In this document: piece after piece, positions 3,318 to 60,706 of the stretch
Position numbering within the stretch: position 1 is the stretch's first letter
Layout of the letters: each line of letters starts with the position of its first letter
Origin: a phage
Sequence record: PZ338878.1
DNA length: 64,000 nt
Direction: 5' to 3' (one strand)
The notes under the pieces: generated by a model
Databases searched by the model: none
What the model was told of the DNA's origin: nothing
The model's input: the letters and a program-made list of their open reading frames with translations, nothing else
Program-made: the position numbers and the translations under genes

Positions 3318-4223
3318 TTATTTTTGAATAGTTGACTTGATAAGGTCTTGCATAATACCACGGATTTCGTTAAAGCACAGAAGGACAGATGCTTCAAAAG
3401 ATCCTTCTTCATCATTAAAGTATTTAGGGAATTTAATACCACTCAACTTAAATTCTTTATCAACAATAAAGTTAACGAAGCCGTCATATTCCAGGCCAAT
3501 GGCAACAACGTGCTTACCATCTTCCATAAGTTCTACTGCACGAGATTCATAAAGGGACTCTTTACTCCATACAACCACACCTTCCGAATCTTCAAGTTTA
3601 ATATAATTACCCAGGGTCAGTCGTTCAGCTTCATGTTCTTCTAAGATGGTATCAAAACCTTTAATAATGGCTTCTTCGTGTACACTAAACGGCAGAACTG
3701 GGAAAGTACCCAACACCTCACGAAGAAATACAGCAATATCTTCACTAATTTTCTTAGTACCATTAAGAACATAGGTAATACTGTTTTCAGTGTCTACAAC
3801 AACATAGTTATAGAAATCATCTGCCTCTGTTTCTGGGAGCAGAGAAAACACAATATCAGCCTCAATTGCTTTTTTGCTTTCTTTGTCCAAGAAGAACTCT
3901 TTAGTAGGATTTGCAGCAATAAACTCTTGTTCCATCTCCTGGAGTTTTTCATTAAGAATGCGTTTAACTTTCTTCTTGTTAACTTTCTTAACAGACTGCC
4001 CTACTTTAATAACCTCTAAACCAGAGAACACTTTTACATAGGAACCATCATCTTCAAAACGAACAAGACCAATGGTATGTGCTTGTTGCCCCTGTGCCAC
4101 AACAAAATCCAGCGGTTTGTCTGTTACTGTGTTCAGTGCTGAAATAGACAGACCATCACCAGAAATCAGGGTTACGCAAGATTTGAAATTTTTAGCAAAC
4201 ATAGTTTTCTCCTCAAATAACAA
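3318..4223 (-). CDS. rdgC: recombination-associated protein RdgC-like
   Basis: About 300 aa; blocks colinear with E. coli RdgC from memory (SLLPETEADDFYNYVVVDTENSITYV, ISEDIAVFLREVLGTFPVLPF). Confidence 0.55.
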   Translation of the reverse strand: MLFEEKTMFAKNFKSCVTLISGDGLSISALNTVTDKPLDFVVAQGQQAHTIGLVRFEDDGSYVKVFSGLEVIKVGQSVKKVNKKKVKRILNEKLQEMEQEFIAANPTKEFFLDKESKKAIEADIVFSLLPETEADDFYNYVVVDTENSITYVLNGTKKISEDIAVFLREVLGTFPVLPFSVHEEAIIKGFDTILEEHEAERLTLGNYIKLEDSEGVVVWSKESLYESRAVELMEDGKHVVAIGLEYDGFVNFIVDKEFKLSGIKFPKYFNDEEGSFEASVLLCFNEIRGIMQDLIKSTIQK

Positions 4224-4491
4224 CTACAAAATATTTTACACCATCATATTCGACAATATGATCAGGATATTTAAATCCTTTATAAGATTTACCAAACAGA
4301 CTAACAGCCTCATTAGCTTTGTTTTGCGGATTACTCAACCACTGTTCTTCTGTGTAAAACTTAAATTCTGTTCTCTTACCTTCTTTTTCTAAACCAACAA
4401 TTTCCTGTGTGATATCTTCAATACCTGCATTCTTCAAGGATTTGATTACCTGACGCAAACCGTGTTTAAAGATATCTTCTGCTGTTAACAT
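4213..4491 (-). CDS. hypothetical protein (92 aa)
   Basis: ORF with GGAGG RBS; overlaps start of RdgC-like gene. Confidence 0.45.
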   Translation of the reverse strand: MLTAEDIFKHGLRQVIKSLKNAGIEDITQEIVGLEKEGKRTEFKFYTEEQWLSNPQNKANEAVSLFGKSYKGFKYPDHIVEYDGVKYFVVVI

Positions 4492-4527
4492 AATACCTCC
4501 AATAAGCCCCCGAAGGAGCTTTATTTG

Positions 4528-5250
4528 TTAAGCAATGATTGCTGCGATATTAGGTTTAACAAAGGTAGATGGCTTCATAATTTTACCTTTGTCATCAAAG
4601 AATACGTATACCTTTTGAACTTCGTTATATACAGCATGTACTCCAGTATAAGAACCTTCTGCACGATCTTTGCTTCGCATCTCGATAGCATCACACTCTT
4701 TTTCAAGAGCTTCAACAATATCCTTAGTTTCCCAAATAGCCAGGAGTTGCTTCTTGGTAGGATACTTGGACTCATTGCTATTCAACACTTCACGCATAAC
4801 CTTCTTCTCGTTATAAACAGAACGCACCAAAGTATCTCGTGCCATACGTGTAAGTGTAAGAGACATTAGGGCAAATTGCAAGTCATTTTCTACCATTTTA
4901 TCAAATTCAATGATAACATCGTAGATGTTTTCTGCCAGAACATCTCCTGTCGGCATTTCCAGAGCTTTATCAACACCTTCTTTACCAAAGAACATAAACG
5001 CCAGGTAGGATGCTACCACAAAAATATCTGCTGCTGCATCAAGTAATTCAACGTGATCATTTTCCTGTGCTGCTGCTTGGAACTCTTTTAGTTCTTCTCG
5101 TACAAAAGAAAGTTGAGCTTCAAACATCTCTTGAGTAAATTCTGGAGTTACGCCTCCACGTGCCTTAGCATTCCAAGCAACAATTTGATCGGCAGCTTTG
5201 ATAAAGAAGCTATTGTCCACTTTTACTTGTTTGAAAAAATTCTCGATCAT
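4528..5250 (-). CDS. MazG-like nucleoside triphosphate pyrophosphohydrolase (putative)
   Basis: EExxE...ExxD-type acidic helix signature (REELKEFQAAAQENDHVELLDAAAD). Confidence 0.4.
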   Translation of the reverse strand: MIENFFKQVKVDNSFFIKAADQIVAWNAKARGGVTPEFTQEMFEAQLSFVREELKEFQAAAQENDHVELLDAAADIFVVASYLAFMFFGKEGVDKALEMPTGDVLAENIYDVIIEFDKMVENDLQFALMSLTLTRMARDTLVRSVYNEKKVMREVLNSNESKYPTKKQLLAIWETKDIVEALEKECDAIEMRSKDRAEGSYTGVHAVYNEVQKVYVFFDDKGKIMKPSTFVKPNIAAIIA

Positions 5251-5259
5251 TGTTTCTCC

Positions 5260-5440
5260 TTATTTAAAATATTGTTCTAACAAAACACTAATGCGAACTA
5301 CCGATTCGCCCATATACGCCCCAGCACAGAGGAAAACAACAAATCTACAAAAATTGCAGTACCATTTGTTCACTGGAAACGAGGCTAACATTATAATTGC
5401 AATAGCAATTAACATCATAAGAACTGTTACTAATACCATA
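5260..5440 (-). CDS. small membrane protein (59 aa, below ORF-track cutoff)
   Basis: MVLVTVLMMLIAIAIIMLASF hydrophobic N-terminus; GAGG RBS; nested between ligase and MazG-like genes. Confidence 0.3.
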
Positions 5441-5448
5441 TTTACCTC

Positions 5449-6564
5449 TTACTCTGCTGGTTCCCAAGTACCTGGAATCATCTTACGTACACGTACCCCA
5501 ACAGGCTTGGTAGGAATACCTTCGTCTGAAAATTCTTCGTACTCAATTTCAACAAATTGACCAATAAGTGTCAAAGCATTTTCTTCTTTACGATAGTTAA
5601 TGGTTTCATCTGAATCCTTACGCATCAGGAATTCGACTACTTTACCATTTTCCATCTCGCCTGTCAATACCCCGTCACCATTTTTATCACGTTTTGCACT
5701 TACCACCTTAACTTCAAGCGTCTGCCGTGGTTTACGTTTAATAACATCATAAGAACGTTTATCAAACTCATAAACACCTTGTGCATTACGATAAACAACA
5801 CCTTCAGCTTTCTCACGCAGAGCTTTTGCATAGAATGCATCAAACTGCTCTTGGTTTTCAATGTACTCTGTATGTACTACACAAATAAGTTCATCTAAAC
5901 CTTTATCTTCAACAACTTCTTTTAGAGCAGCCAAAACTTCAACCCTCTTCTCAAATGGTACAGATGGCACAGGAACATCATATACATAGTATTTAAGAAG
6001 CGGAGTGTTAGCATTATGCTTTTTCCACGCACTATTAATTTGTTGAAGGCTAAGGACACCCAAACCAGCAAAAACTTCACCATCAAGAGGATGACCAACT
6101 ACTTCTTTAATGAAGGTTGGAATTTCTTTCCAGTGAGGTGGAAGTTTATATACCTCCCCAGCTTTAGATAAGCATTCACCTTGCATGTTAATCATTGAAC
6201 GTAGACCATTCAATTTATATTGTGCATAACCTGGGAACAAAACACGATCAGCATAATCTTTATAATCCTGACATTTCATGGGTGTGGAAGGAACATGGTT
6301 TTCAGCTTCCTCTTTTGTTTTGTAATACCCATTCTTAAGTTGCTTTGTCCATTTGGCAAGAGCTTCTATTTCAGCTTGTTCTTCTGCTGTTGTTTCATTT
6401 GAGCGACCAATATTTTTAGGTTCTGCCGTATAAGATTTGCTAGTAATCTTTCCACCTAATTGACCATGAGCAACAGTTACAACACTACCTTCGGTATAGA
6501 CTGACCACTGTTTAATTTTACCTGTAGAAGTTTTACCATACAATGTAGGATTAGTTTGTTTCAT
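5449..6564 (-). CDS. ATP-dependent DNA ligase
   Basis: Nucleotidyltransferase motifs KLNGLR (I), DGEV (III), EGVVYR (IV), DVIKRK (V). Start moved to ATG at 6564, which has a GGAGG RBS; the ORF-track start at 6612 lacks one. Confidence 0.6.
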   Translation of the reverse strand: MKQTNPTLYGKTSTGKIKQWSVYTEGSVVTVAHGQLGGKITSKSYTAEPKNIGRSNETTAEEQAEIEALAKWTKQLKNGYYKTKEEAENHVPSTPMKCQDYKDYADRVLFPGYAQYKLNGLRSMINMQGECLSKAGEVYKLPPHWKEIPTFIKEVVGHPLDGEVFAGLGVLSLQQINSAWKKHNANTPLLKYYVYDVPVPSVPFEKRVEVLAALKEVVEDKGLDELICVVHTEYIENQEQFDAFYAKALREKAEGVVYRNAQGVYEFDKRSYDVIKRKPRQTLEVKVVSAKRDKNGDGVLTGEMENGKVVEFLMRKDSDETINYRKEENALTLIGQFVEIEYEEFSDEGIPTKPVGVRVRKMIPGTWEPAE

Positions 6565-6754
6565 CTTTAACCTCCAGTTGCGAAAGAACCCATTTAGCCA
6601 TTTCAATTTCACCGTGTAGTCTGCCTAGTTCATAGGCATCATCAATATTACCACCAGTGTAATCATCCACCATAAAGTAAGGATCTTCGCTACTGTTAGG
6701 TGCGTTTGCAATTCTCGTTAATTCTTCAATAAATGTCATAGTTACCCTTACCAA
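6551..6754 (-). CDS. hypothetical protein (67 aa)
   Basis: ORF in co-directional block; stop overlaps ligase start. Confidence 0.4.
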   Translation of the reverse strand: MVRVTMTFIEELTRIANAPNSSEDPYFMVDDYTGGNIDDAYELGRLHGEIEMAKWVLSQLEVKDETN

Positions 6755-6972
6755 TTATATACAAGAGTTTGAATCTCTTCCATCAAGTCTTCAAGATCTG
6801 TATCAACGTATTCAGAAGATGTTGCCATAAAGTATGTAATCATTGTGAACCCTTCCGAAGAAAGGGCATCAAGGATATCATTAAACATATCTTCCATTTC
6901 AGTATTCTCACCAAATGAGAATAACATTTGTTGATCTTCGCTTACACCTTTAACATAGATAGCTGTACTCAT
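6748..6972 (-). CDS. hypothetical acidic protein (74 aa)
   Basis: ORF tightly packed with neighbours. Confidence 0.4.
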   Translation of the reverse strand: MSTAIYVKGVSEDQQMLFSFGENTEMEDMFNDILDALSSEGFTMITYFMATSSEYVDTDLEDLMEEIQTLVYNW

Positions 6973-6975
6973 ATA

Positions 6976-7296
6976 TTAATCCTTAAGACGTTCATTTAAA
7001 TCTGCAATAACATCACCTAAATCTTCACATTCCAGTGTTAACTCTGAAACTTGTCCACTCAAATAACAAACTTCTTCATTTAGATCTGAAATAATGTTTT
7101 CTAATGAATCTACTTGATCATCATATGAACGTTTTGTTTCTTCAAGTTCTTCTGTAAGATCATTAATCAGACGAAGCAAAGATAAGATATAGCCGTCTCC
7201 TGTCTCGTTCCTCCACTCACTTCCGTAGCGATAAATAATAATTTCACCATTATCGACTACTGTAAAATACTTACCTTCACCAGAATAAATTTCCAT
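6976..7296 (-). CDS. hypothetical coiled-coil protein (106 aa)
   Basis: ORF with charged heptad-like sequence. Confidence 0.4.
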   Translation of the reverse strand: MEIYSGEGKYFTVVDNGEIIIYRYGSEWRNETGDGYILSLLRLINDLTEELEETKRSYDDQVDSLENIISDLNEEVCYLSGQVSELTLECEDLGDVIADLNERLKD

Positions 7297-7305
7297 ACAC
7301 TCTCC

Positions 7306-7710
7306 TTATTGTAGCTTAAGTGAACTGCGAAGACGTTTCTCTTGCTGATCACGAATATGTTGTGGAACCTCATGAATTGAGTCGTTACCGTGCCTATTTT
7401 CAACAACTAAAGAGATAACTTGATAACCAAACTCTTCAGCAAGAGTAAAATAAGGTTTAAGTTCTTTCTCTGTGGTTGAAGTGTTAGAGACAATAATCTT
7501 TTTAATATCAGATGCCATAGCATCACGAACAATACTCTGACACCATGCGTGTGCTTTACCTACATTCTCTGGCTTCCAATCGTAAACACCACTTTCTGTG
7601 TAATGATATTGATCTGCCTCACAGATAGGCCAATAACCTTCAGAAATAATTTCTGCTACTGTAGATTTACCTGCACCTGAAACACCACGTAAAATGATAA
7701 GTTGTTTCAT
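7306..7710 (-). CDS. P-loop polynucleotide 5'-kinase-like protein
   Basis: N-terminus MKQLIILRGVSGAGKST resembles the T4 Pnk kinase domain start (Walker A); abuts the RNA-ligase-like gene. Confidence 0.5.
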   Translation of the reverse strand: MKQLIILRGVSGAGKSTVAEIISEGYWPICEADQYHYTESGVYDWKPENVGKAHAWCQSIVRDAMASDIKKIIVSNTSTTEKELKPYFTLAEEFGYQVISLVVENRHGNDSIHEVPQHIRDQQEKRLRSSLKLQ

Positions 7711-8643
7711 TTAGCCTCCAAAGAAGTTTTCTATTTCTTTACGTCGCTCTTGTGGATCTAAAGCAGCCCATTGAGTCTTAGTAAAGTTGTTTCGAAGCCA
7801 TTCTAGCAAAGTATAATATTCTTCGTCAACAATTTGTTTAGCATTTTTTGGGTTGTCCCAAATCATATCCCACTTCTTATTGCCACCACGCATAAGGAAT
7901 TTCTTAGCAAGATAATATGGTGACTTAATCTTTAACAGCAAGTTAAACGGATAGTTTGTTTCACGAATAACAAACCCTTCGTGCTTACAATGTTTAGACA
8001 TTTCAACAACATCTGAAAATTTAATCATCGGATAAACTTCAGGACGTTTAAATTTTGTAATAGATGCAATCCCATCAAGCACACCTTCGGGTAACATGAA
8101 ACTTGTCCCATCAGGATTTTGAATCCTTGCTCCAATTAAGTATGCGCCTGGTTCTTCTTCAACAATATGTGGATCAGAAGGATCACAGATTTCAAAAAGG
8201 AAAGTTGCTTTTGCACTTTCTGTCCACTTAATGAAATATTCTATGTCATCACACTCGGAAACAATATGGTTCTTGGCAAGAATTGCAAAATCTGACTCTA
8301 GGCTCCCTGTTGTTGATACAATAAGTTGCCCTTTGTACACACCTACAGATGCCATAAAACCGTTTACTTTACGGACAGCATCTACAAGCTGGTCTGCTGG
8401 AAGATCTGTACCATTCTCAAAACGATTAAAGATTTTAGTAAAAGGCCAAATAACAACATTGTCTTCTGAGTCAACAACCAACCCACGACAATCTAGAAGG
8501 CGTTTGTCTACGTCCCACAAGTTGTCCCAGAATACATTGTTTTTGTATTTAAGTACAGCAAGACCAGCATACTCTCCAGATTTAACTTCTTTTTTATGCA
8601 CTAAACCTTTTGCAATCAGGTCATCACAATTGAACTTAGCCAC
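7711..8643 (-). CDS. RNA ligase-like nucleotidyltransferase
   Basis: Motifs KVNGF (I, no Arg at +5, unlike DNA ligases), FEICD (III), EGFVIRE (IV), LLLKIK (V). Confidence 0.5.
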   Translation of the reverse strand: MAKFNCDDLIAKGLVHKKEVKSGEYAGLAVLKYKNNVFWDNLWDVDKRLLDCRGLVVDSEDNVVIWPFTKIFNRFENGTDLPADQLVDAVRKVNGFMASVGVYKGQLIVSTTGSLESDFAILAKNHIVSECDDIEYFIKWTESAKATFLFEICDPSDPHIVEEEPGAYLIGARIQNPDGTSFMLPEGVLDGIASITKFKRPEVYPMIKFSDVVEMSKHCKHEGFVIRETNYPFNLLLKIKSPYYLAKKFLMRGGNKKWDMIWDNPKNAKQIVDEEYYTLLEWLRNNFTKTQWAALDPQERRKEIENFFGG

Positions 8644-8644
8644 C

Positions 8645-9196
8645 TTAATCTCCTTTGATTATCTTATGATGGTCTACAACAACAATATCACGCTTATCCA
8701 TAATAGAGATGATTTCGTCAAAATGCAAGATTTTTCCGTGTGCGTCCCAACCAACATCCAACATTTTCCCATACAAATGATCAGGGAATGATCCGTGAGA
8801 GTGCCCGTGTAGCATGATTGATCCATGCCCTTGTTTATTCCAGGAAGCCATAGGGTAATGGCTTAAGACGAAGAACAGTTTCTGATATTTCACTTCATCA
8901 TAATACACCACCTCGCCATATTCTGCAAGCACTTCTCGGTGTTTACTGTAATCATGGTTCCCAACACAGTAAGTAATATCCCCTTGGAGACGGGAAGCAA
9001 TCTTACGGGTATCTTCTTCAGTCCCGAAACAGAAGTCCCCAAGATGGTACATCTTTACTCCTGGTCTTGTGGCACATTTATTCCATGCTTCGATCAGTGC
9101 TTCTGTCATATGCTCCATATCTTCCCACGGGCGATATTCAGGAGCAAACTCTCGGATACGTTTGTGCATAAAATGCAAATCACTTGTAATAAACAT
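8645..9196 (-). CDS. calcineurin-like metallophosphoesterase (candidate 2',3'-cyclic/3'-phosphate end-healing phosphatase)
   Basis: Motifs DLHF, GDFCFG, GNHDY, GHSHG. Confidence 0.6.
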   Translation of the reverse strand: MFITSDLHFMHKRIREFAPEYRPWEDMEHMTEALIEAWNKCATRPGVKMYHLGDFCFGTEEDTRKIASRLQGDITYCVGNHDYSKHREVLAEYGEVVYYDEVKYQKLFFVLSHYPMASWNKQGHGSIMLHGHSHGSFPDHLYGKMLDVGWDAHGKILHFDEIISIMDKRDIVVVDHHKIIKGD

Positions 9197-9555
9197 TAGT
9201 ATAATCCCTCGCTGAATAGTTCACTGTCGTGACCATTTCTTTCATAGTTAATTTGTTTGGCATTATCTGCAATGATATAAGCATCTTTGCGACTCCACCA
9301 GTTATAATACTGATCAATAAACCCTTGATTATCAGGTAAGCAAAACAGTTTATCAATCAATCCTGCATCTTTTAAAACATTAAGTTGTGCAGATAGTACA
9401 GGATTTGCATGCCTAACACAAGGGATAATTAACTCTTCACCATTGTTGAGAATATACTTATTCGCAGCGCATACTATAACACGTTGAGCATAGTGATCCT
9501 CACCAATCCAAGTAAGAGGTTGGTAACAAATATCATGTTGATTAGTAGCGCACAT
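9196..9555 (-). CDS. hypothetical protein (Cys-rich, 119 aa)
   Basis: ORF; start moved to ATG at 9555 (ORF-track start at 9558 is TTG). Confidence 0.4.
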   Translation of the reverse strand: MCATNQHDICYQPLTWIGEDHYAQRVIVCAANKYILNNGEELIIPCVRHANPVLSAQLNVLKDAGLIDKLFCLPDNQGFIDQYYNWWSRKDAYIIADNAKQINYERNGHDSELFSEGLY

Positions 9556-9701
9556 CAATTTTCTTCATACTCTTCGTCTGTATGTATATCGTAAAAGCAA
9601 TCTTCAAAAGTTGCAAGTGCTTTTTCTACATCGGGCCAATGGTTAGTGTGTTTGTATATATAAAACCCATCCCCTTCATCTACCCAAATAACATAAAGCA
9701 T
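9555..9701 (-). CDS. small hypothetical protein (48 aa)
   Basis: AAGGAGG RBS then ATG at 9701; stop overlaps next start (ATGA-type junction). Confidence 0.3.
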   Translation of the reverse strand: MLYVIWVDEGDGFYIYKHTNHWPDVEKALATFEDCFYDIHTDEEYEEN

Positions 9702-9710
9702 AACACCTCC

Positions 9711-10052
9711 TTAATAGTTAACACGTTTAATTTCAACACCGTAGGATGAAATAAAATTTTCCTTAGCTAACATATATTTACCAGCAGCAGAAGGGTTTGA
9801 TGTATGGACATAGATAGTTTTAAGAGCATCCCATTCACCAGCATACAACATACATTCTACGTCTAAGAATGCATGATATCCTTCCTGATCTTCTCCAAGA
9901 TCATTATCGAAGTGTATCTCTGAGATATTATTGAAATTATCTTCATCTGAAACAAAAGATAACCAATCCTCAAAAGATTTTAACCAAATGGCATCCTCAT
10001 AACCATAATCTTTAGGATCTCTTAAATCGTCTAACCAAAGAATTTTAGCCAC
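9711..10052 (-). CDS. hypothetical protein
   Basis: ORF; likely GTG start at 10052 with GAAGGGGG RBS just after the upstream stop; ORF-track start at 10085 overlaps the upstream gene. Confidence 0.4.
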   Translation of the reverse strand: MAKILWLDDLRDPKDYGYEDAIWLKSFEDWLSFVSDEDNFNNISEIHFDNDLGEDQEGYHAFLDVECMLYAGEWDALKTIYVHTSNPSAAGKYMLAKENFISSYGVEIKRVNY

Positions 10053-10054
10053 TA

Positions 10055-10246
10055 TCAACCCCCTTCCTGTTTCTCTTCTTTCCAAGTTTTACCATTATCT
10101 ACCAACTTCTTAGAAACAGCAAATCTTTCTCCATTGATATAAAACAAATAAAGAATAAAGGATTTTCCTATAGTTACAGTATCTACTACTTCTACACGCT
10201 TCACACCTTGCATGTATTTGGCTTTACCTGAATAAATAAGGAACAT
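10055..10246 (-). CDS. hypothetical protein (63 aa)
   Basis: ORF in co-directional block. Confidence 0.35.
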   Translation of the reverse strand: MFLIYSGKAKYMQGVKRVEVVDTVTIGKSFILYLFYINGERFAVSKKLVDNGKTWKEEKQEGG

Positions 10247-10524
10247 TACTTATTCCTTTTGTTGTTGATCACATCTAAAGCTGTGTAAGGTTTGTTTGTA
10301 CCGCTGTATTCAAGAATAATTGGTACATATTCATAGACCAACTCAAAAGTACCATACATAGAATCTGCAACTGAAATAAGCATTTCAGTGCCTTTGTCGT
10401 TCTTAATTAATGAAAATCTTGCCCCTGGTTTATTGAGCACTTCATATTTCTTACCTGCTGTCAGCAAACCTGAATACCATTCATTTTCCACAACAGATAA
10501 ACACTTCAGATAAGTTTTTCTCAT
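10246..10524 (-). CDS. hypothetical protein (92 aa)
   Basis: ORF, start/stop overlap with neighbours. Confidence 0.4.
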   Translation of the reverse strand: MRKTYLKCLSVVENEWYSGLLTAGKKYEVLNKPGARFSLIKNDKGTEMLISVADSMYGTFELVYEYVPIILEYSGTNKPYTALDVINNKRNK

Positions 10525-10862
10525 TTCTTTTTGCTCCTTCTTTTAGGCTTCTCGTATAAACCTAACACAGCCGACTCTTTTGCGCAAATAGGAACTGACT
10601 TCATTCCTCGTTTTTTAGCTTCTGGTAGATTCAAAACCCACCAGCCAAACCAGTACAATTCATCTTCTGTGAAAGGATCTGCCATAGGATCTGCATCACG
10701 TGCTTCAAATTTAGCAAGAGCTTCTTCTATCTTTTCTATTGGAGTATCAAAGACAAAAGCCTCTGTGTCAAATTTTTGTTTCTTAGGAGCGGCTTTTGCC
10801 GCCACATCTTTAGATGCGCGCTTTGTTACGGATCGCTTCTTCGGTGTTTTCGCCATCAACAA
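10521..10862 (-). CDS. hypothetical basic protein, possibly nucleic-acid binding
   Basis: Lys/Ala/Pro-rich basic N-terminus and basic C-terminus. Confidence 0.4.
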   Translation of the reverse strand: MLMAKTPKKRSVTKRASKDVAAKAAPKKQKFDTEAFVFDTPIEKIEEALAKFEARDADPMADPFTEDELYWFGWWVLNLPEAKKRGMKSVPICAKESAVLGLYEKPKRRSKKK

Positions 10863-11049
10863 CCTCCATGCGGTGTAAGAAATCTTGCTGGAATCGCCAA
10901 TACTGTTGACCAGTCCTTACATCTTCGTAGATCACAACAGGATCAAATACTTTAGATACACCCGCTGGTTTAGGAAAGCCAACTACACGATATAAACCGC
11001 CTTTGCTAATACAAGAATATGTTACATCAGTTAAAATTTCTTTTTTCAT
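10810..11049 (-). CDS. hypothetical protein (79 aa)
   Basis: ORF in co-directional block. Confidence 0.35.
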   Translation of the reverse strand: MKKEILTDVTYSCISKGGLYRVVGFPKPAGVSKVFDPVVIYEDVRTGQQYWRFQQDFLHRMEVVDGENTEEAIRNKARI

Positions 11050-11243
11050 TTCTTAATAAACTCCAATACAGGTACGTGATCAGCAGTTAAAGTTACACAA
11101 TTGTAACTTACCTTTTCAACTTCAGAAAATGCTTCAACCCATAGCAAGAAATTCTCTTTAGCTTCTTCATAATTCAATGTTGACTTAACAACATGGAACT
11201 CACCAAGGATTACTCTATAGATTGTTTGCATAGTTTGATTCAT
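11046..11243 (-). CDS. hypothetical protein (65 aa)
   Basis: ORF, 4-nt overlap with next gene. Confidence 0.35.
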   Translation of the reverse strand: MNQTMQTIYRVILGEFHVVKSTLNYEEAKENFLLWVEAFSEVEKVSYNCVTLTADHVPVLEFIKK

Positions 11244-11309
11244 TTATTTTTCCTTTGTTTAAAATGTGTTAAACAATCGCAAATGCTTGTGACGCACTTT
11301 GTGATCCCA

Positions 11310-11717
11310 CTAATTAATGTCAGCACTATGATTGTTGAGAGTATAGGATACTCCATCGCCCAAGTCAACATGAATCTCAACTCCTAACTGTCTTTCTAAT
11401 GGTAAACGTTTTGAGAATTGATAATTACAAAATTTACAGTCTAAGTCAAGCAACTCATGTTTGCTTAAACCTGCAACGATAACTTTGCTTCCCACTGTCC
11501 ACTCAATACCTTCAAAGTTATCTCTTCTTTTCAAAATGTCAAGTAAGAAGATGATTTGTTGCCACTCCGTAGACAAGTCTTCTTCATAAAATGCAGAACA
11601 AAAAGTTTTATCATCGTAGAAAGCATACATTATGCCTCCATCTATTGTTTCACTTCTAACGTAACGTGTGACCCTCATTATTCCCTCCTGTATGGCTCTG
11701 TAACGAGCTAATAGCAC
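11310..11717 (-). CDS. hypothetical protein, first gene of the leftward early block
   Basis: ORF with AGGAGGG RBS; borders the divergent intergenic region. Confidence 0.4.
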   Translation of the reverse strand: MLLARYRAIQEGIMRVTRYVRSETIDGGIMYAFYDDKTFCSAFYEEDLSTEWQQIIFLLDILKRRDNFEGIEWTVGSKVIVAGLSKHELLDLDCKFCNYQFSKRLPLERQLGVEIHVDLGDGVSYTLNNHSADIN

Positions 11718-11809
11718 CTAAGATATGCAATCACCTTACCTCACAGTAAAACTCGTTACAATCGTTTTTAGGAGGTTCAGGTTGTACTTAAAAATAATCT
11801 AAAAAGGTG

Positions 11810-11838
11810 TTGACAAACGCAAAAAAGTATGCTACCCT
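11810..11838 (+). promoter_or_regulatory. sigma70-type promoter (TTGACA, 17-nt spacer, TGc-TACCCT)
   Basis: Perfect -35 and TG-extended -10 sharing the TATG-N-TA architecture of the other promoters here; transcript would begin at a CCCCC...GGGGG stem (11841-11871). Confidence 0.35.
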
Positions 11839-12019
11839 AACCCCCGAAAAACGCCGAGCGCAGCGAGGGGGTGTTATCTAATCTTGTGATACATGATCTA
11901 ACAGACAACTGAGTAGTCTACATATAGCACTATGTTATGTCTATAATACTAACATACATGCTCTATACTAACAATAGATTATTTATTAATTTTATTATTA
12001 ATTAAATAATAAATATCTA

Positions 12020-12048
12020 TTGACTTTAGATCTATCTGTATGTAGAGT
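12020..12048 (+). promoter_or_regulatory. sigma70-type promoter upstream of the prs-like gene
   Basis: TTGACT, 17 nt, TAGAGT preceded by TG; AT-rich upstream tract. Confidence 0.5.
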
Positions 12049-12087
12049 AGAGAACATAAAGTCCTAACTCAGCTAAGGAGATAAAAA

Positions 12088-12981
12088 ATGAAAGTTAGTA
12101 TTCTGCATGGTGTTGACTGTTATGTTACTGATGTAGACGTTAAAGTGTTTACATTCTCTGGTGGAGAACAACATGTTCAATTAGATATGAATCTATCAGA
12201 TTTCAATCATGCTACAGACAGAATCTTACTCACTTTAGAAGTAAGATCTGCTAAAGACTTGATGACTTTGGTTATGACTAAGAATGCATTGGACAATATG
12301 CTATATCATAAACCATATTGTGTTGATTTACTCATGTTGTATGTGCCGTATGCACGACAAGACAGAGTGTGTGAGCCTGGGGAAGCATTCGGAGTTAAAG
12401 CATTTGCTTCTATAATTAATTCATTAAATTTCTCACGTGTTATCGTTGCTGATCCGCATAGTGATGTTACTCCAGCAGTGTTTGACAGACTCTGTGTAAT
12501 ACCTCAAGAAGAGATTGCTTACGAAACTTTAAAGTGGAAGTTACGTATGGAGAATTTTGCTCTTGTTAGCCCTGATGGTGGTGCTCTTAAGAAAATATTT
12601 AAATTATCTAAGAAAATGTCTTTAGATGTGTTCTGTGCAGAGAAGGTTAGAGATACCGCAACAGGTGCTATTGTTCGTACAGACATTTCTGTACAGGATT
12701 TCAATAAGCGTAACCTGATGATCGTAGATGATATCTGTGATGGTGGTAGAACTTTTATCGAATTGGCTAAAGTGCTACGTGCTCGTAACGCAGGTAAGAT
12801 TGAGCTATATGTTACGCACGGTATCTTTTCTAAAGGTCTTAAAGAGTTAAGTGAGCACTTTGACTGCATTCATTCCCTTAATGTGTGGGAAGATAACATC
12901 CAAGAAGATTCTGGTGTTCTTGTTAAGAATCAGTCAGATTTGCAACAACAAATTGTATCTCCATACGTGTGGAATTTTTAA
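12088..12981 (+). CDS. prs: ribose-phosphate pyrophosphokinase (PRPP synthetase) family protein; candidate ADP-ribose pyrophosphokinase (Adps) of a NARP1-type pathway
   Basis: PRPP-binding loop MIVDDICDGGRTF; AAGGAG RBS; adjacent to nadV-like gene. Confidence 0.75.
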   Translation: MKVSILHGVDCYVTDVDVKVFTFSGGEQHVQLDMNLSDFNHATDRILLTLEVRSAKDLMTLVMTKNALDNMLYHKPYCVDLLMLYVPYARQDRVCEPGEAFGVKAFASIINSLNFSRVIVADPHSDVTPAVFDRLCVIPQEEIAYETLKWKLRMENFALVSPDGGALKKIFKLSKKMSLDVFCAEKVRDTATGAIVRTDISVQDFNKRNLMIVDDICDGGRTFIELAKVLRARNAGKIELYVTHGIFSKGLKELSEHFDCIHSLNVWEDNIQEDSGVLVKNQSDLQQQIVSPYVWNF

Positions 12982-13052: not shown

Positions 13053-14786
13053 ATGAATATTTTTGCACCTTTTGCTACTGATTGGTACAAACCTGGTCAC
13101 AAGCAGATGTACAACCAAAATACAAAACTTATTTTCTCTAATTTAACTCCTCGTAATGATAAAAACTTTGCACACTATGCAGATCGTGAAGCACGTGGTG
13201 TGATTGTTTTAGGTATTCGTCGAGCAGTCACTGATGCTCTTGTAACTATGTGGGATAGCTTCTTTAAAATGTCTCGTAGTGCAGCAGTAAATAAATTTTA
13301 TCGTATGTCTAAAAATGCATTAGGTGCTTCTGCTCCTTCTGCTGAATGTTGGGGAGAATTGCACGATTTAGGTTATCTTCCGCTGGAAGTTCGATCTCTG
13401 CCAGAAGGTGTTTTGTGTCCTATTGGTGTTCCTGTGTTTACTGTGCATAATACTTTAGAAAAATTCTTTTGGTTAACTAACTATGTGGAAACACTACTGT
13501 CAGATGAAACTTGGAAGACAATGACTAATGCCACAGCAGCTTTTCAGTATAAGCGTATCGCTATGGCATATGCGATGGCAACGTGTGATAATATTGATCA
13601 CGTTAACTTCCAGTGTCATGATTTTAGCCTACGTGGTTTAAGTAATATCGAAGATGGTTATAAGAGTGGTATCGCTCACTTGGCATCGTTCACAGGAACA
13701 GATAATATTCTGGCTATTGAAACTGTGCATGACTATTATGGTATTGATTATGATCAGTTTGTTGCAGGTTCGATTCCGGCAACAGAACATTCAGTAGCAA
13801 CGACTAACATTGGAGCTATTGTTGAAGATCTGAAGAAACATTTCCCACATCTTAAAGATGATGTAGATGGGCTTCGTTATGTAGCAGAAAAAGAGTTTCT
13901 TCGTCGTTATATCGAAGAAATTGTTCCAGAAGGTTTTTGTTCATATGTAGCAGACTCTTATGACTATTGGGCTGTATTGACTCGCATTCTGGTAGAATTG
14001 AAAGATTCCATTATGTCACGAAATGGTCGTCTTGTTATTCGTCCAGATTCAGGAGATCCGGTTAAAGTTGTTGCAGGATACAATGTTGAATCTTTTGATA
14101 ACTATGAAGACCTCTTAAATAATGGTATTGCGACAGCCACTGAAGTAGTTCATTTGGCTGATGTTAATAAGTATTACAATGTTCTTCAGGATTGCAGTGT
14201 TGCTGACTGTATTGATGAAACTTATGAGATTCCTTATTGTGAAGCAGTAGGTTCTATTCAAATCCTTTGGGAAGTGTTTGGTGGTACTATCAACCGAAAA
14301 GGCTACAAGGTTCTTGATCAGCATATCGGTATGATTTATGGTGATTCTATTACTGTTGAACGAGAACACGAGATCTTACGCCGACTGAAGAAGAAAGGTT
14401 TTGCAGCTTCCAATATTGTATTTGGTGTTGGTAGTTATACTTATCAGTTCAATACACGAGATACTTTTGGTTTTGCTGTTAAAGCAACAGGTAGTATTAT
14501 CGGTGAACACGAAATTTTGGTAAGTAAGGAGCCTAAAACTGATCCTGGTAAACGCTCTGCAAAAGGTTTTATTAAGGTTGTTAAGGATACCAATGGTAAT
14601 CTGTCTCTTGTAGATAATCTTTCTTTTAAAGATATCCAGGATGAAGACAATGAGTTACAAGTTATCTTCAAGGATGGTAAGGTTATTACACCACAAGTAG
14701 AAGGCCGTGATGAAACATTCACTGATATCCGCAACCGTGTTGACGTAGAGGTTCTTCGTACTATGGGAACCATCCAGGTTGACTAA
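13053..14786 (+). CDS. nadV: nicotinamide phosphoribosyltransferase family protein; candidate nicotinamide ADP-ribose transferase (Namat) of a NARP1-type pathway
   Basis: 577 aa; NAMPT-like N-terminus (FATDWYKPGHKQMY); GGAG RBS. Confidence 0.75.
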   Translation: MNIFAPFATDWYKPGHKQMYNQNTKLIFSNLTPRNDKNFAHYADREARGVIVLGIRRAVTDALVTMWDSFFKMSRSAAVNKFYRMSKNALGASAPSAECWGELHDLGYLPLEVRSLPEGVLCPIGVPVFTVHNTLEKFFWLTNYVETLLSDETWKTMTNATAAFQYKRIAMAYAMATCDNIDHVNFQCHDFSLRGLSNIEDGYKSGIAHLASFTGTDNILAIETVHDYYGIDYDQFVAGSIPATEHSVATTNIGAIVEDLKKHFPHLKDDVDGLRYVAEKEFLRRYIEEIVPEGFCSYVADSYDYWAVLTRILVELKDSIMSRNGRLVIRPDSGDPVKVVAGYNVESFDNYEDLLNNGIATATEVVHLADVNKYYNVLQDCSVADCIDETYEIPYCEAVGSIQILWEVFGGTINRKGYKVLDQHIGMIYGDSITVEREHEILRRLKKKGFAASNIVFGVGSYTYQFNTRDTFGFAVKATGSIIGEHEILVSKEPKTDPGKRSAKGFIKVVKDTNGNLSLVDNLSFKDIQDEDNELQVIFKDGKVITPQVEGRDETFTDIRNRVDVEVLRTMGTIQVD

Positions 14787-15533: not shown

Positions 15534-15609
15534 GGTTCCATAGCTCACTGACGAGAGCGCACACCTCATAAGTGTCGAGGGCAGGGATTGTAACCCTGGG
15601 GAACCACCA
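15534..15609 (+). tRNA. tRNA-Met (anticodon CAT; Ile2 or initiator not excluded)
   Basis: 76 nt; acceptor GGTTCCA/GGGAACC (one 7:66 mismatch); anticodon loop CTCATAA; non-canonical T-loop ATTGTAA; CCA encoded. Confidence 0.5.
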
Positions 15610-15640
15610 TTTAAAAGGAGATGCTATGCATCTCCTATAT

Positions 15641-15726
15641 GCAAGTGTGGTGGAATTGGTGATACACATTGTGCTTAAAACGCAACGCTTAAATGATTGA
15701 GGGTTCGAATCCCTCCACTTGCACCA
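15641..15726 (+). tRNA. tRNA-Leu (anticodon TAA)
   Basis: 86 nt class II; acceptor GCAAGTG/CACTTGC; anticodon loop CTTAAAA; long variable arm; T-arm GAGGG-TTCGAAT-CCCTC; A73; CCA encoded. Confidence 0.7.
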
Positions 15727-15728
15727 AC

Positions 15729-15834
15729 GCCTAGTAGGGTATTTGGTAATTCCGAGGCCATCAAAGCCTGAAAAATATGTTAGACCGCTTTGTCTAACTA
15801 AATACGAAATATGGTTCGATTCCATAACTAGGCT
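15729..15834 (+). ncRNA. tRNA-like element, 106 nt, non-canonical (possible stable small RNA, pseudo-tRNA or suppressor-like)
   Basis: Perfect 7-bp acceptor pairing GCCTAGT/ACTAGGC and canonical T-arm TATGG-TTCGATT-CCATA, but a 40-nt internal region with a 7-bp hairpin (15779-15798); candidate anticodon loop CATCAAA; no CCA encoded. Confidence 0.3.
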
Positions 15835-15866
15835 TCAATTTAAATAATAATTTTAGTAAAAATATC

Positions 15867-15895
15867 TTGACATTCACTTAGTTTTTTGTTATAGT
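15867..15895 (+). promoter_or_regulatory. sigma70-type promoter inside the tRNA array (TTGACA, 17 nt, TGt-TATAGT)
   Basis: Perfect -35 plus TG-extended -10, about 12 nt upstream of the next tRNA-like gene. Confidence 0.5.
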
Positions 15896-15906
15896 TACTG
15901 TGAAAA

Positions 15907-15988
15907 CGGGGTGTATCTCACCTGACTTCTAATCAGGCGTTAACCGAGTAATTGGAGTATGCAGGTTCGAATCCTGTCACCCCGACCA
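15907..15988 (+). tRNA. tRNA-Arg (anticodon TCT)-like, non-canonical D region
   Basis: 82 nt; acceptor CGGGGTG/CACCCCG; canonical anticodon arm CCTGA-CTTCTAA-TCAGG; T-arm GCAGG-TTCGAAT-CCTGT; CCA encoded; only 5 nt where the D-arm should be and a 23-nt region before the T-arm. Confidence 0.45.
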
Positions 15989-16006
15989 AAAAGTTTTAAA
16001 AACTAC

Positions 16007-16036
16007 TTGACAAGCAAGATAGTTTTATGTTAGATT
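16007..16036 (+). promoter_or_regulatory. sigma70-type promoter inside the tRNA array (TTGACA, 18 nt, TGt-TAGATT)
   Basis: Perfect -35 plus TG-extended -10, about 15 nt upstream of tRNA-Ser. Confidence 0.5.
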
Positions 16037-16051
16037 TAAAGTATGATAACG

Positions 16052-16141
16052 GGAAGGTAGGGCGCAGCGGTGCGCAACCAGGTTTGAACCCTGGCCCATT
16101 GTAGCGATACGGTGATGGTTCGACTCCATTATCTTCCTCCA
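16052..16141 (+). tRNA. tRNA-Ser (anticodon TGA)
   Basis: 90 nt class II; acceptor GGAAGGT/ATCTTCC; anticodon arm CCAGG-TTTGAAC-CCTGG; 19-nt variable arm; T-arm GATGG-TTCGACT-CCATT; CCA encoded. Confidence 0.7.
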
Positions 16142-16159
16142 AATTCAACTAGGAGCTTT

Positions 16160-16312
16160 ATGAATTATAAAACTATTGGACAGGTTGTTACCGGAGTTAA
16201 GATTGTAGATAATAAAGTTGTTTATGAGTATTCTAATCTTCAACAATCTGAAGATGGTAAAAATATTCGTATGGTAAAAGCAGAACAAAAAGATTCCGGT
16301 TGTTTTGAATAA
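16160..16312 (+). CDS. small hypothetical protein (50 aa) between tRNA genes
   Basis: AGGAG RBS then ATG at 16160; the ORF-track start at 16112 lies inside tRNA-Ser. Confidence 0.3.
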   Translation: MNYKTIGQVVTGVKIVDNKVVYEYSNLQQSEDGKNIRMVKAEQKDSGCFE

Positions 16313-16320
16313 TTAAGAAC

Positions 16321-16406
16321 GGTAGATTGGTGAAATGGTAGCCACAACAGTTTGCTAAACTGTCGTCGGAAACGGCGTGTAGGTTCAAGTCCTACATCTA
16401 CCGCCA
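16321..16406 (+). tRNA. tRNA-Ser (anticodon GCT)
   Basis: 86 nt class II; acceptor GGTAGAT/ATCTACC; anticodon arm ACAGT-TTGCTAA-ACTGT; long variable arm; T-arm GTAGG-TTCAAGT-CCTAC; G73; CCA encoded. Confidence 0.7.
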
Positions 16407-16540
16407 AGTTATCTTTAATGTAGCTTGTAATCTTACTTTAATAGAGTAAACTTTCGGCAGATGGCCTCCACCATCTTACCGATACCCTAATACTTCATAG
16501 TCAAGTGCCGCAAACACTGGCTATTTTAAAGATAATTTAT

Positions 16541-16616
16541 ACATCGTTAGCTTAGTTGGTAGAGCAAGGGGCTTTTAACTCCAAGGTCGAAGGTTCGAAT
16601 CCTTCACGATGTACCA
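16541..16616 (+). tRNA. tRNA-Lys (anticodon TTT)
   Basis: 76 nt; acceptor ACATCGT/ACGATGT (A1-U72); D-arm GCTT-AGTTGGTA-GAGC; anticodon loop CTTTTAA; T-arm GAAGG-TTCGAAT-CCTTC; CCA encoded. Confidence 0.65.
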
Positions 16617-16621
16617 AACAC

Positions 16622-16708
16622 GTAGGTATCGCATAGCGGCAATTGCTGGAGACTGTAAATCTCCTGCCCTTCGGGGCTTCGTTGGTTCGAGTCCAACTAC
16701 CTGCACCA
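16622..16708 (+). tRNA. tRNA-Tyr (anticodon GTA)
   Basis: 87 nt class II; acceptor GTAGGTA/TACCTGC; anticodon arm GGAGA-CTGTAAA-TCTCC; 16-nt variable arm with TTCG loop; T-arm GTTGG-TTCGAGT-CCAAC; CCA encoded. Confidence 0.7.
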
Positions 16709-16715
16709 AATTAAA

Positions 16716-16800
16716 GATGGATTGGCCTAGTGGTTGGGCGACGGACTGTTAATCCGTGAACGAAAGTTCTAGCAAGGTTCAAATCCTTGATCCATCGCCA
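16716..16800 (+). tRNA. tRNA with Asn anticodon (GTT) but a class II-type long variable arm
   Basis: 85 nt; acceptor GATGGAT/ATCCATC; D-arm GCCT-AGTGGTT-GGGC; anticodon arm ACGGA-CTGTTAA-TCCGT (as E. coli tRNA-Asn, from memory); 15-nt variable arm with GAAC/GTTC stem; T-arm CAAGG-TTCAAAT-CCTTG; G73; CCA encoded. Confidence 0.55.
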
Positions 16801-16879
16801 AATAGTGCTTGTAGAGTTAATAGAAACCTCTAGAATTTTCTAGAATTGTAGGTATAAAATCCTACCAAGCAAATATTTT

Positions 16880-16954
16880 GCTCCTATCGTATAACGGCTA
16901 TTACGGTTGCCTTGTAAGCAACTTATCAGGGTTCGAGTCCTTGTGGGAGCACCA
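16880..16954 (+). tRNA. tRNA-Thr (anticodon TGT)
   Basis: 75 nt; acceptor GCTCCTA/TGGGAGC; anticodon arm GTTGC-CTTGTAA-GCAAC; T-arm CAGGG-TTCGAGT-CCTTG; CCA encoded. Confidence 0.7.
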
Positions 16955-16971
16955 ATTTTAACTCTAAAGGA

Positions 16972-60112: not shown

Positions 60113-60706
60113 TTAAATCTTAAATTCTTCGTTGTTAAACGAATCTAGTGTACGTACTTCTGGTTTTTTGGGAATGAAAACGTCTTTTACAAAGCGGAAC
60201 ATAGGGAAACGTTCTGCCATTTTACGGACGTGTGCTTCTTTACCTGTGTATCGGTGATTAATAGTGCAAATATTAGTTTTCAATGCAAAGTCAAAATCTG
60301 GATGATATACATAATTTTGACCATCCCAGTAACACAGGCAAATAGCTACGTCAAAATTCCATACGATTTCACTGCGTACACCCTCTTCCATGATCATAAA
60401 GTTAAACTTAAGATCTTTATAGTATGCTTCAAATACCCATTTCAAATGTGGTAGTTCGGCATAAGTGTGTTCTGTTTGCTTAGTAAGTTGTTTAACATTA
60501 CGTGCACCAACACCCAACATCAAAAATTTCTCTACCAGTACGGTTGTATTGTGGTTAGGCATACGCAAGTAAATGTCAATATCTTGCGCAGGTGTTTCTA
60601 ATCGCCAGTCGCGTACAGCGCCGCCAGCTACAATTGCAAACGGATCTACCAGTTGGCACATACGTAATACTTCTAAAGCGCGTACTTTTTGATCTTCAAT
60701 ATTCAT
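60113..60706 (-). CDS. CCA-adding enzyme/poly(A) polymerase-type nucleotidyltransferase head domain
   Basis: AIVAGGAVRDWRLETPAQDIDIY matches the GGxVRD...DxD motif of class II tRNA nucleotidyltransferases; 197 aa. Confidence 0.5.
   Translation of the reverse strand: MNIEDQKVRALEVLRMCQLVDPFAIVAGGAVRDWRLETPAQDIDIYLRMPNHNTTVLVEKFLMLGVGARNVKQLTKQTEHTYAELPHLKWVFEAYYKDLKFNFMIMEEGVRSEIVWNFDVAICLCYWDGQNYVYHPDFDFALKTNICTINHRYTGKEAHVRKMAERFPMFRFVKDVFIPKKPEVRTLDSFNNEEFKI

Follow-up and report, generated by a model that had tools for sequence, protein, structure and literature searches.

A predicted RNA end-healing and sealing operon with separate genes for kinase, Rnl1-type ligase and metallophosphoesterase in a Stephanstirmvirinae coliphage

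We analyzed a window of 64,000 nucleotides (the whole stretch of DNA considered here; sequence record PZ338878.1) from a Stephanstirmvirinae coliphage, an Escherichia coli myovirus of ~148 kb. Three adjacent genes of this window encode a P-loop kinase, an RNA ligase of the Rnl1 type and a calcineurin-like metallophosphoesterase (MPE), and we consider it likely that they constitute a phage operon for RNA end healing and sealing, a split-gene analogue of T4 Pnkp plus Rnl1. This reading is founded on the fold and family assignments of ligase and kinase, the catalytic residues of all three proteins, operon-like coupling of the genes, their linkage across phages, and fusions of the MPE to RNA-repair domains. 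The open reading frames (ORFs) lie exactly where a preliminary description of this DNA had placed three contiguous, co-directional genes, all on the minus strand:

7306..7710, minus strand: P-loop kinase, 134 aa
7711..8643, minus strand: Rnl1-type RNA ligase, 310 aa, GTG start
8645..9196, minus strand: calcineurin-like MPE, 183 aa

The genes are arranged head-to-tail and, read along the minus strand, would be transcribed in the order MPE (9196..8645), ligase (8643..7711) and kinase (7710..7306). At the ligase/kinase junction, the ATG directly follows the TAA stop codon; at the MPE/ligase junction, TAA and GTG are separated by a single base; and the MPE start overlaps the stop codon of a 120-aa ORF upstream in a TAATG sequence. 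A Shine-Dalgarno-like GGAG is present at all three junctions within the 3' part of the preceding gene and, together with the compact junctions, gives the pattern of a translationally coupled operon. Scans of positions 4300-12300 for promoters and terminators did not rise above chance level (26 versus 27 expected, and 5 versus 4.2, respectively), so that the transcription unit is not delimited by such predictions. The region is 98.8% identical to that of phage EC.P2 and 97% identical at the DNA level to that of phage PaulScherrer/Bas60 (MZ501100). None of the NCBIfam models matches the kinase, the ligase or the MPE.

The ligase matches PF09511 RNA_lig_T4_1 with 53.7 bits (cut-off 28.3) and carries the motifs KVNGF (K92), HEGFVIRE (E222, G223) and LKIKS (K238, K240). 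A search of the PDB with the single sequence returned nothing useful, and a family profile was required. When the profile was built from 30 homologues, T4 Rnl1 was the sole match among PDB sequences (E 1.8e-10), with residues 48-241 covered. In this alignment, R53, K70, K92, E151, E222/G223 and K238/K240 fall on the T4 segments LECRG, PMEKFFN, TKEDG, FEF, EGY and KIKS. K92 thereby takes the nucleophile position of T4 K99, and motifs I, III, IV and V are complete. The counterparts of T4 Rnl1 R54, K75, K99, E159, E227, G228, K240 and K242 are invariant in 42 sequences that represent 41 lineages (clusters at ligase identities of at least 70%) and are 32-77% identical to the query. The N-terminal sub-domain is also of the Rnl1 type, with R53 and K70 invariant and F72 kept among close relatives; the T4 equivalents Arg54, Lys75 and a Phe make the ATP contacts of this sub-domain (PMC6379707).

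With an AlphaFold (AF2) model of the ligase (pLDDT 90), Foldseek ranked T4 Rnl1 and the LIG domain of the fungal tRNA ligase Trl1 equally (~3e-13). The preliminary description had recognized an RNA-ligase-type nucleotidyltransferase, and profile, Foldseek and conservation analyses agree on a T4 Rnl1/Trl1-LIG fold with an intact catalytic set. The C-terminal module is helical and comprises ~69 aa. Because it is the C-terminal domain that defines a clade of RNA ligases (PMC6379707) and this module could not be aligned to that of T4 Rnl1, the protein probably represents a distinct sub-clade with an Rnl1-type catalytic domain. It would be expected to seal 3'-OH/5'-PO4 RNA ends by way of ligase-AMP and AppRNA.

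The kinase has the P-loop GVSGAGKST, in which G9, G14 and K15 are invariant and G12 and T17 occur in 90% or more of the sequences. It scores 38.3 bits against PF13671 AAA_33 (cut-off 27) and matches phrog_2071 (2e-57) as well as the polynucleotide kinase family phrog_505 (9e-9). The single sequence retrieved generic P-loop proteins only, and its PDB matches were weak. With a family profile, the best PDB matches were Pnkp1 of the Pnkp1-Rnl-Hen1 complex (4xrp, 1.4e-6), the RNA 5'-OH kinases of tRNA splicing in Mucorales (9d8a/9drz), T4 Pnk (1ly1, 4.6e-5) and CthPnk (4gp7). The AF2 model (pLDDT 91) is closest to CthPnk (TM 0.78) and T4 Pnk (TM 0.77). Among 37 sequences, K15 and D33 are invariant; D33 aligns with D35, the general base of T4 Pnk, within a motif that reads RDDY in T4 Pnk and RDDF in Pnkp1, and its CthPnk equivalent is D38. 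These profile and structure matches bear out the resemblance to the T4 Pnk kinase domain that had been noticed previously, and we predict that the protein is an RNA 5'-OH polynucleotide kinase which works like Pnk and belongs to a divergent sub-family. A deoxynucleoside monophosphate (dNMP) kinase, the identity that would have spoken against a role in RNA repair, was rejected: the match to phrog_139 covers the P-loop only (residues 1-35, E 1.7e-4), no such enzyme is among the top structural matches, and the best matches are polynucleotide 5'-kinases instead.

The MPE contains all six metal-binding motifs of a calcineurin-like enzyme (D6xH8, G53D54, G79N80H81D, H113 and G131H132xH134) and is catalytically complete. 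D6, H8, G53, D54, G79, N80 and H81 are invariant in 40 sequences, and H113, G131, H132 and H134 occur in 38 of the 40, the exceptions being truncated ORFs. Thus the motifs that had been quoted for the ligase, the MPE and the kinase are all present and conserved. The protein belongs to phrog_547 (phosphoesterase, 3e-55); its own score against Pfam Metallophos_2 is below threshold (21.7 bits, cut-off 27), yet 29 of 35 family members match this model. In the PDB, the family profile found a sole relative, the uncharacterized Aquifex protein aq_1665 (1xm7, E 1e-22), and no phosphatase chain of CthPnkp or lambda phosphatase was recovered at E <= 1. Motif II reads GDF(C/S)F, without the DRG extension of the GDxxDRG motif in lambda phosphatase and CthPnkp. 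The MPE may work like the CthPnkp phosphatase without being of that sub-family, with which it has only the superfamily motifs in common. As the preliminary description held, the 3' phosphatase is encoded separately here and does not share the fold of the T4 Pnkp HAD domain.

The MPE family is very large, with 23,334 cluster representatives at 50% clustering, and its substrate must for this reason be inferred from context. Searching for fusions among the 150 best MPE matches in 1.84 billion representatives yielded two, one to PF09414 RNA_ligase (P0363) and one to PF18143 HAD_SAK_2 (P0396), the HAD domain of "Swiss-army-knife" RNA-repair proteins. The MPE is accordingly a predicted end-healing enzyme for 2',3'-cyclic phosphates and 3'(2')-phosphates. 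A fusion of the other two components was found in the 737-aa "RNA ligase" phrog_8238, where the kinase matches the N-terminal part and the ligase the C-terminal part.

The three genes remain together over large evolutionary distances. We collected 70 viral contigs that carry this ligase sub-family at 30-98% identity and considered the 5 kb around each ligase. The ligase is accompanied by both MPE and kinase in 62 contigs, by the MPE in 5, by the kinase in 2, and stands alone in 1. Counted by lineage, 39 of 41 have an MPE gene and 36 of 41 a kinase gene in this interval, which makes the MPE the most constant partner of the ligase and not an occasional one. The core of three genes is found in at least 35-36 divergent lineages; in the 35 with all three, the genes are contiguous (span <= 2.3 kb) in 18 and the ligase is central in 33. 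Their order is kinase-ligase-MPE in 21 lineages and MPE-ligase-kinase in 12. Since the linkage outlasts inversion of the order, it is not simply inherited synteny. When all ORFs around the 70 ligase loci were clustered, no fourth universal partner emerged: the next clusters were antisense shadow ORFs, followed by nicotinamide phosphoribosyltransferase (NAMPT, 18 lineages) and DNA ligase (15). The ligase family has 674 records from cultured phages of Escherichia, Pseudomonas, Vibrio, Klebsiella, Acinetobacter and other hosts, and the module is distributed patchily across unrelated phage groups.

We then reversed the question and started from the 80 best viral MPE loci, which are 33-44% identical to the query except for one that is near-identical. 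This ligase is encoded nearby in 33 of them, and 6 further loci (L080, 1971-3335, and five others) adjoin an RNA ligase of another family, with PF09414 and a PHA02142 OB domain. The pairing with PF09414 ligases, along with the fusions to RNA ligase and HAD_SAK_2, suggests that the MPE family is a general 3'-end healing enzyme that serves several ligase types. Linkage, the reverse test, the MPE fusions and phrog_8238 together make healing and sealing by far the best explanation of the cassette, and the interpretation given in the preliminary description is thus supported by fold, catalytic residues, linkage and fusions. That description was correct in its three-gene cassette and overlooked a fourth gene of the same operon, which encodes a cREC protein. 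Upstream of the MPE, on the same strand, we find:

9196..9558, minus strand: phrog_839 protein between the cREC and MPE genes, 120 aa
9555..9701, minus strand: small ORF between the cREC gene and the 120-aa ORF, 48 aa
9711..10085, minus strand: cREC protein, 124 aa, PF20274

The cREC gene (10085..9711) is thus separated from the MPE by two small ORFs. Its product matches PF20274 cREC_REC with 53.9 bits (cut-off 27) and has no solved relative in the PDB. cREC denotes a cyclic-phosphate-processing receiver domain, for which opening of 2',3'-cyclic phosphates has been predicted and which its authors describe as experimentally uncharacterized (PMC7824862, PMC9503650); the protein encoded here is a predicted metal-independent 2',3'-cyclic phosphodiesterase. 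In related phages (L084-L088 and L093, relatives from Klebsiella and Salmonella) and in Proteus phage Mydo, the cREC gene lies directly between ligase and kinase. It is present in 11 of the 70 ligase loci, which marks it as a lineage-specific add-on; in most lineages cREC is absent, so that the MPE alone must heal the 3' end there. The 120-aa protein matches phrog_839 (3.2e-47) and nothing in Pfam or the PDB. In L140, an unrelated lineage, a homologue (4163-4453) is encoded directly upstream of the ligase, and L080 has one near an MPE; the protein could be a further accessory component whose membership in the module is uncertain. The 48-aa ORF is an annotated coding sequence in phage PaulScherrer and has 1 homologue among the 70 ligase loci.

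The following scheme infers which substrate is repaired (RNA, in particular tRNA), how cREC and MPE share the work and which nuclease is countered. RNA would be cut by a ribonuclease of the host or of a competitor, most plausibly an anticodon-loop or other metal-independent tRNase, leaving a 2',3'-cyclic phosphate and a 5'-OH. Healing of the 3' end would begin with opening of the cyclic phosphate by cREC (where present) and/or the MPE, after which the MPE would strip the monoester phosphate to yield a 3'-OH. The kinase would transfer a phosphate from NTP onto the 5'-OH, and the ligase, having adenylylated itself on Lys92, would hand the AMP to the 5'-phosphate and seal the break. That a single MPE can carry out both 3' steps has a precedent in the MPE domain of CthPnkp and in lambda phosphatase, both of which hydrolyze 2',3'-cyclic phosphates (PMC2190708). 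RNA repair has also been predicted independently in silico for phages of the rV5/Mydo type (PMC9503650, section 3.7.3).

Several observations weigh against an RNA healing and sealing operon of this kind. The kinase has no clear counterpart of T4 Pnk R38, as position 36 is His here and His or aromatic in most relatives, and R106 in the lid segment is kept only among close relatives; R8 and H113 are invariant instead of the T4-type Arg residues. Wang and Shuman reportedly found that R38 and the lid residue R126 of T4 Pnk contact the substrate and NTP phosphates. Among the Foldseek matches of this protein there are also gluconokinase, adenylate kinase and PFK-2 kinases, with E-values only ~10-fold weaker. 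For the MPE, 41 of the 80 best viral loci contain no RNA ligase within 3-5 kb, and the family is hence not restricted to RNA repair. In the profile alignment, the C-terminal module of the ligase shows no detectable homology to the ~120-aa tRNA-specificity domain of T4 Rnl1, so that tRNA specificity of the ligase is only putative. The neighboring genes act in DNA metabolism (DNA ligase, RdgC and exonucleases). Finally, our literature search found no assay of this ligase subfamily, of the aq_1665-like MPE subfamily, of the mini-kinase family or of cREC, and no experimental work on the cassette or on RNA ligases of Phapecoctavirus/Stephanstirmvirinae.

The alternative that survives best is still RNA repair, with the chemistry of fungal and plant Trl1. 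Here cREC and/or the MPE would act only as a cyclic phosphodiesterase to give 3'-OH,2'-PO4 ends, and the ligase would both need the 2'-PO4 and leave it at the junction. An NAD+-dependent step, catalyzed by KptA/Tpt1 of the host or by the linked Sir2-like protein of related phages, would then take the 2'-PO4 off the junction. We regard this version as unlikely. In Trl1-LIG, a site for the 2'-PO4 has been proposed that consists of His227 (9 residues after motif III Glu218), Arg337 (12 after motif V Lys325) and Arg334 (PMC6379707). The ligase of the window has H159 8 residues after the motif III Glu and R252 12 residues after the second motif V Lys, and these two as well as K248 are invariant in the 42 sequences from 41 lineages. 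T4 Rnl1 carries Ile in the H159 column of the profile alignment and presumably Ser at the position of R252, going by the register after motif V in the T4 sequence. H159, K248 and R252 may thus be a candidate 2'-phosphate pocket. The correspondence to the Trl1 site rests on motif spacing. In the structural alignment of the ligase model, more residues match Trl1-LIG than T4 Rnl1; by sequence, however, the family matches T4 Rnl1 only, and no Trl1 chain was found at E <= 10. The further proposition that the ligase founds a phage clade, with an Rnl1-like catalytic domain, a Trl1-like short C-terminal module and the H159/K248/R252 2'-phosphate pocket, and that the cassette is of the fungal/plant type, seems to us improbable to a similar degree.

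The surroundings of the ligase bear on Trl1-type chemistry as well. Neighbors related to NAD+ salvage are frequent within 5 kb: of the 41 lineages, 18 carry NAMPT, 11 a phosphoribosyl pyrophosphate (PRPP)-synthetase-like gene, 7 Macro and 6 an NMNAT-like gene. In Proteus phage Mydo the cluster itself includes a Sir2-like gene, and a Sir2-like protein has been proposed to remove 2'-phosphates (Iyer et al., PMC9503650). No KptA, Sir2 or Macro gene was found in the cluster of the window, however, where three small ORFs occupy the position of the Mydo Sir2 gene; the NAD+ salvage genes may cluster merely as a counter to NAD+-depleting defenses; and an MPE with monoesterase activity would strip the 2'-phosphate. 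If Trl1-type chemistry did apply, it would explain the frequent adjacency of NAD+ salvage genes and would provide a natural source of 2'-phosphorylated RNA for bacterial Tpt1/KptA, enzymes for which we know of no physiological substrate in bacteria.

We assign a very low probability to a mere accessory or anti-defense island, with nucleotide second messengers or ADP-ribose derivatives as the targets of the MPE and perhaps of cREC, and with nucleotides as the substrate of the kinase. The size of the MPE family and its 41 loci with no RNA ligase nearby are compatible with such an island, as are the NAD+ salvage and MazG-like genes nearby. Iyer et al. in fact use the term "nucleotide kinase" and discuss ADPr>P as a possible alternative substrate of the calcineurin-like and cREC enzymes (PMC9503650). 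The very tight linkage, contiguous in 18 of 35 lineages with the ligase central in 33, survives inversion and is hard to reconcile with a loose collection of genes; the same applies to the translational coupling at the junctions, to the direct fusions of MPE with RNA ligase and of kinase with ligase (phrog_8238), and to the best kinase matches, which are polynucleotide kinases.

Only slight weight is given to routine phage RNA processing in place of counter-defense, for instance in maturing transcripts of the phage tRNA cluster or in rejoining RNAs that are cleaved in a programmed manner. The opposite strand does encode 16-17 phage tRNAs at a distance of 6-9 kb, the window also contains a small Pol-beta nucleotidyltransferase gene, and the sequence reveals no specific nuclease target; yet neither ARAGORN nor Rfam reports an intron-containing or split tRNA, the T4 precedent is one of counter-defense (PMC6379707, PMC1484252), and the patchy distribution across unrelated phages is typical of accessory, conflict-related genes. 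Least credible of all is that kinase and MPE process DNA ends for the neighboring ATP-dependent DNA ligase (6612..5449) while the Rnl1-like protein acts on DNA or in tail-fiber attachment like T4 gp63. This DNA ligase does share the leftward gene block with RdgC, a 5' exonuclease and a DnaQ-like exonuclease; DNA ends are substrates of T4 Pnkp and CthPnk as well, for which PDB entries contain DNA; and the PHROG label of the ligase family is "RNA ligase and tail fiber protein attachment catalyst". Yet the conserved partner of kinase and MPE is the Rnl1-like ligase (36-39 of 41 lineages), whereas only 15 of the 41 have a DNA ligase at most 5 kb from the RNA ligase; the fusions of the MPE family are to domains of RNA ligases and RNA-repair HAD proteins; and cREC occurs in RNA-repair and ADPr>p contexts (PMC9503650).

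An RNA healing and sealing operon with T4-like chemistry invites comparison with the systems already known. T4 Pnkp and Rnl1, the counter to the anticodon nuclease PrrC and the closest characterized system, are likewise phage-encoded and perform the same three steps of 3' healing, 5' phosphorylation and ATP-dependent sealing, with an Rnl1 adenylyltransferase domain whose catalytic residues align and a Pnk P-loop fold that includes the catalytic Asp. T4, however, combines kinase and phosphatase in a single protein, with a phosphatase of the HAD/DxDxT acylphosphatase type, whereas the window encodes a stand-alone 134-aa kinase and a stand-alone binuclear metallophosphoesterase, to which cREC is added. 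The ligase is also shorter (310 aa versus 374 aa in T4 Rnl1), with no detectable T4-type C-terminal tRNA-specificity domain. The T4 pnk and rnlA genes are not known to be adjacent. The Clostridium thermocellum Pnkp/Hen1 and Pnkp1-Rnl-Hen1 systems resemble the cassette in combining a calcineurin-type MPE, a P-loop Pnk and an ATP-dependent ligase (PMC2190708, PMC3675462, PMC4411300), and Pnkp1 and CthPnk are the best sequence and structure matches of the kinase; in these bacterial systems, by contrast, the MPE is of another sub-family and is fused to the remaining domains. Trl1 (LIG-KIN-CPD) differs in being a single eukaryotic polypeptide whose CPD is a 2H phosphoesterase and whose ligase requires a 2'-PO4, with the junction phosphate removed by Tpt1 and NAD+.

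A sirtuin-centered RNA-repair neighborhood has been predicted in Escherichia phage V5 and in Proteus phage Mydo (Iyer, Burroughs, Anantharaman, Aravind 2022, PMC9503650), and it is the same neighborhood in related myoviruses; the Mydo ligase is 57% identical to that of the window. In common are a T4-like tRNA ligase, cREC, a small kinase, a MazG-like pyrophosphatase and a calcineurin-like phosphoesterase, with DNA ligase and NAMPT nearby. Here, however, there is no Sir2-like gene, and cREC is encoded upstream of the MPE and not between ligase and kinase. The Mydo Sir2-like gene (L154, 6945-7721) lies between kinase and DNA ligase. At this position (6551-7296, minus strand) the window has three ORFs of 106, 74 and 67 aa, and the sirtuin of the published rV5/Mydo neighborhood is therefore absent; the 106-aa ORF matches phrog_18076 ("hol-like chemotaxis"), apart from coiled-coil-like Pfam noise. 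The phosphoesterase, which is treated as occasional in PMC9503650, is present in 39 of the 41 ligase lineages. In PaulScherrer (Bas60, MZ501100), the orthologues bas60_0242-0244 are annotated as "polynucleotide kinase", "RNA ligase" and "putative phosphoesterase", and the cREC orthologue bas60_0247 as hypothetical. The neighborhood has thus been described in silico (PMC9503650) and annotated in GenBank (Bas60), and the arrangement as such is not new. What we add is the constancy of the MPE, the breadth of the three-gene core, the MPE fusions to RNA-repair domains and the candidate 2'-phosphate pocket in the ligase.

Other genes of the window deserve mention. Divergent from the repair operon are two plus-strand genes of NAD+ salvage, a PRPP-synthetase-like gene (12088-12981) and NAMPT (13053-14786), and the NAMPT/Prs-like linkage extends to distant Pseudomonas Pakpunavirus phages and to Proteus phage Mydo. 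We cannot tell whether this adjacency reflects NAD+-dependent RNA repair chemistry or co-located counter-defense genes. A MazG/PRA-PH-like nucleotide pyrophosphohydrolase of 240 aa (4528-5250, minus strand; PF01503, 31 bits; phrog_671) has counterparts within 5 kb of the ligase in 12 of the 70 loci, all from related phage groups, and is listed by Iyer et al. 2022. The tRNA cluster (15534-18410, plus strand) contains 16 genes according to ARAGORN, including Lys-UUU, the isoacceptor cut by PrrC, Tyr-GUA and Asn-GUU. The preliminary description had counted 19 tRNA-like genes; the cluster exists, and the number comes to 17 in all, since Rfam finds 14, of which one (15907-15985) is not in the ARAGORN set. 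The "CCA-adding-like enzyme" reported with it is a Pol-beta-type nucleotidyltransferase (60706..60113, minus strand), with a GGAVRD...DIDI signature and a match to phrog_1614 (3.5e-34). Its match to the PolyA_pol head domain is sub-threshold, however (20.1 bits, cut-off 23), and the protein, at 197 aa, is shorter than a complete CCA-adding enzyme would have to be; rebuilding of RNA ends ahead of ligation is a conceivable role for it. The DNA polymerase ORF (60844-63423, minus strand) encodes 859 aa, and the PaulScherrer orthologue is a 1104-aa precursor with a 245-aa intein, which this phage appears to lack. GC skew changes sign at ~12 kb and ~58 kb, matching the switches between leftward (early/metabolic) and rightward (tRNA, structural) gene blocks.

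Bacterial immunity by tRNA cleavage is increasingly recognized, with PrrC, RloC, PARIS, Septu, OLD, bacterial Schlafens and Cas13/Cas12a3 as examples, and to our knowledge T4 Pnkp/Rnl1 is the sole phage countermeasure by RNA repair that has been proven experimentally. The cassette described here would be a different and much more widespread solution than that of T4, comprising four small, stand-alone predicted enzymes. The compact size of these proteins (a 134-aa kinase, a 183-aa 3'-end phosphoesterase and a 310-aa ligase) means that they could serve as reagents for RNA ends. As the cassette is present in genetically tractable BASEL phages that grow on E. coli K-12, the defense nucleases that it would counter and the choice between T4-type and Trl1-type chemistry are directly testable.

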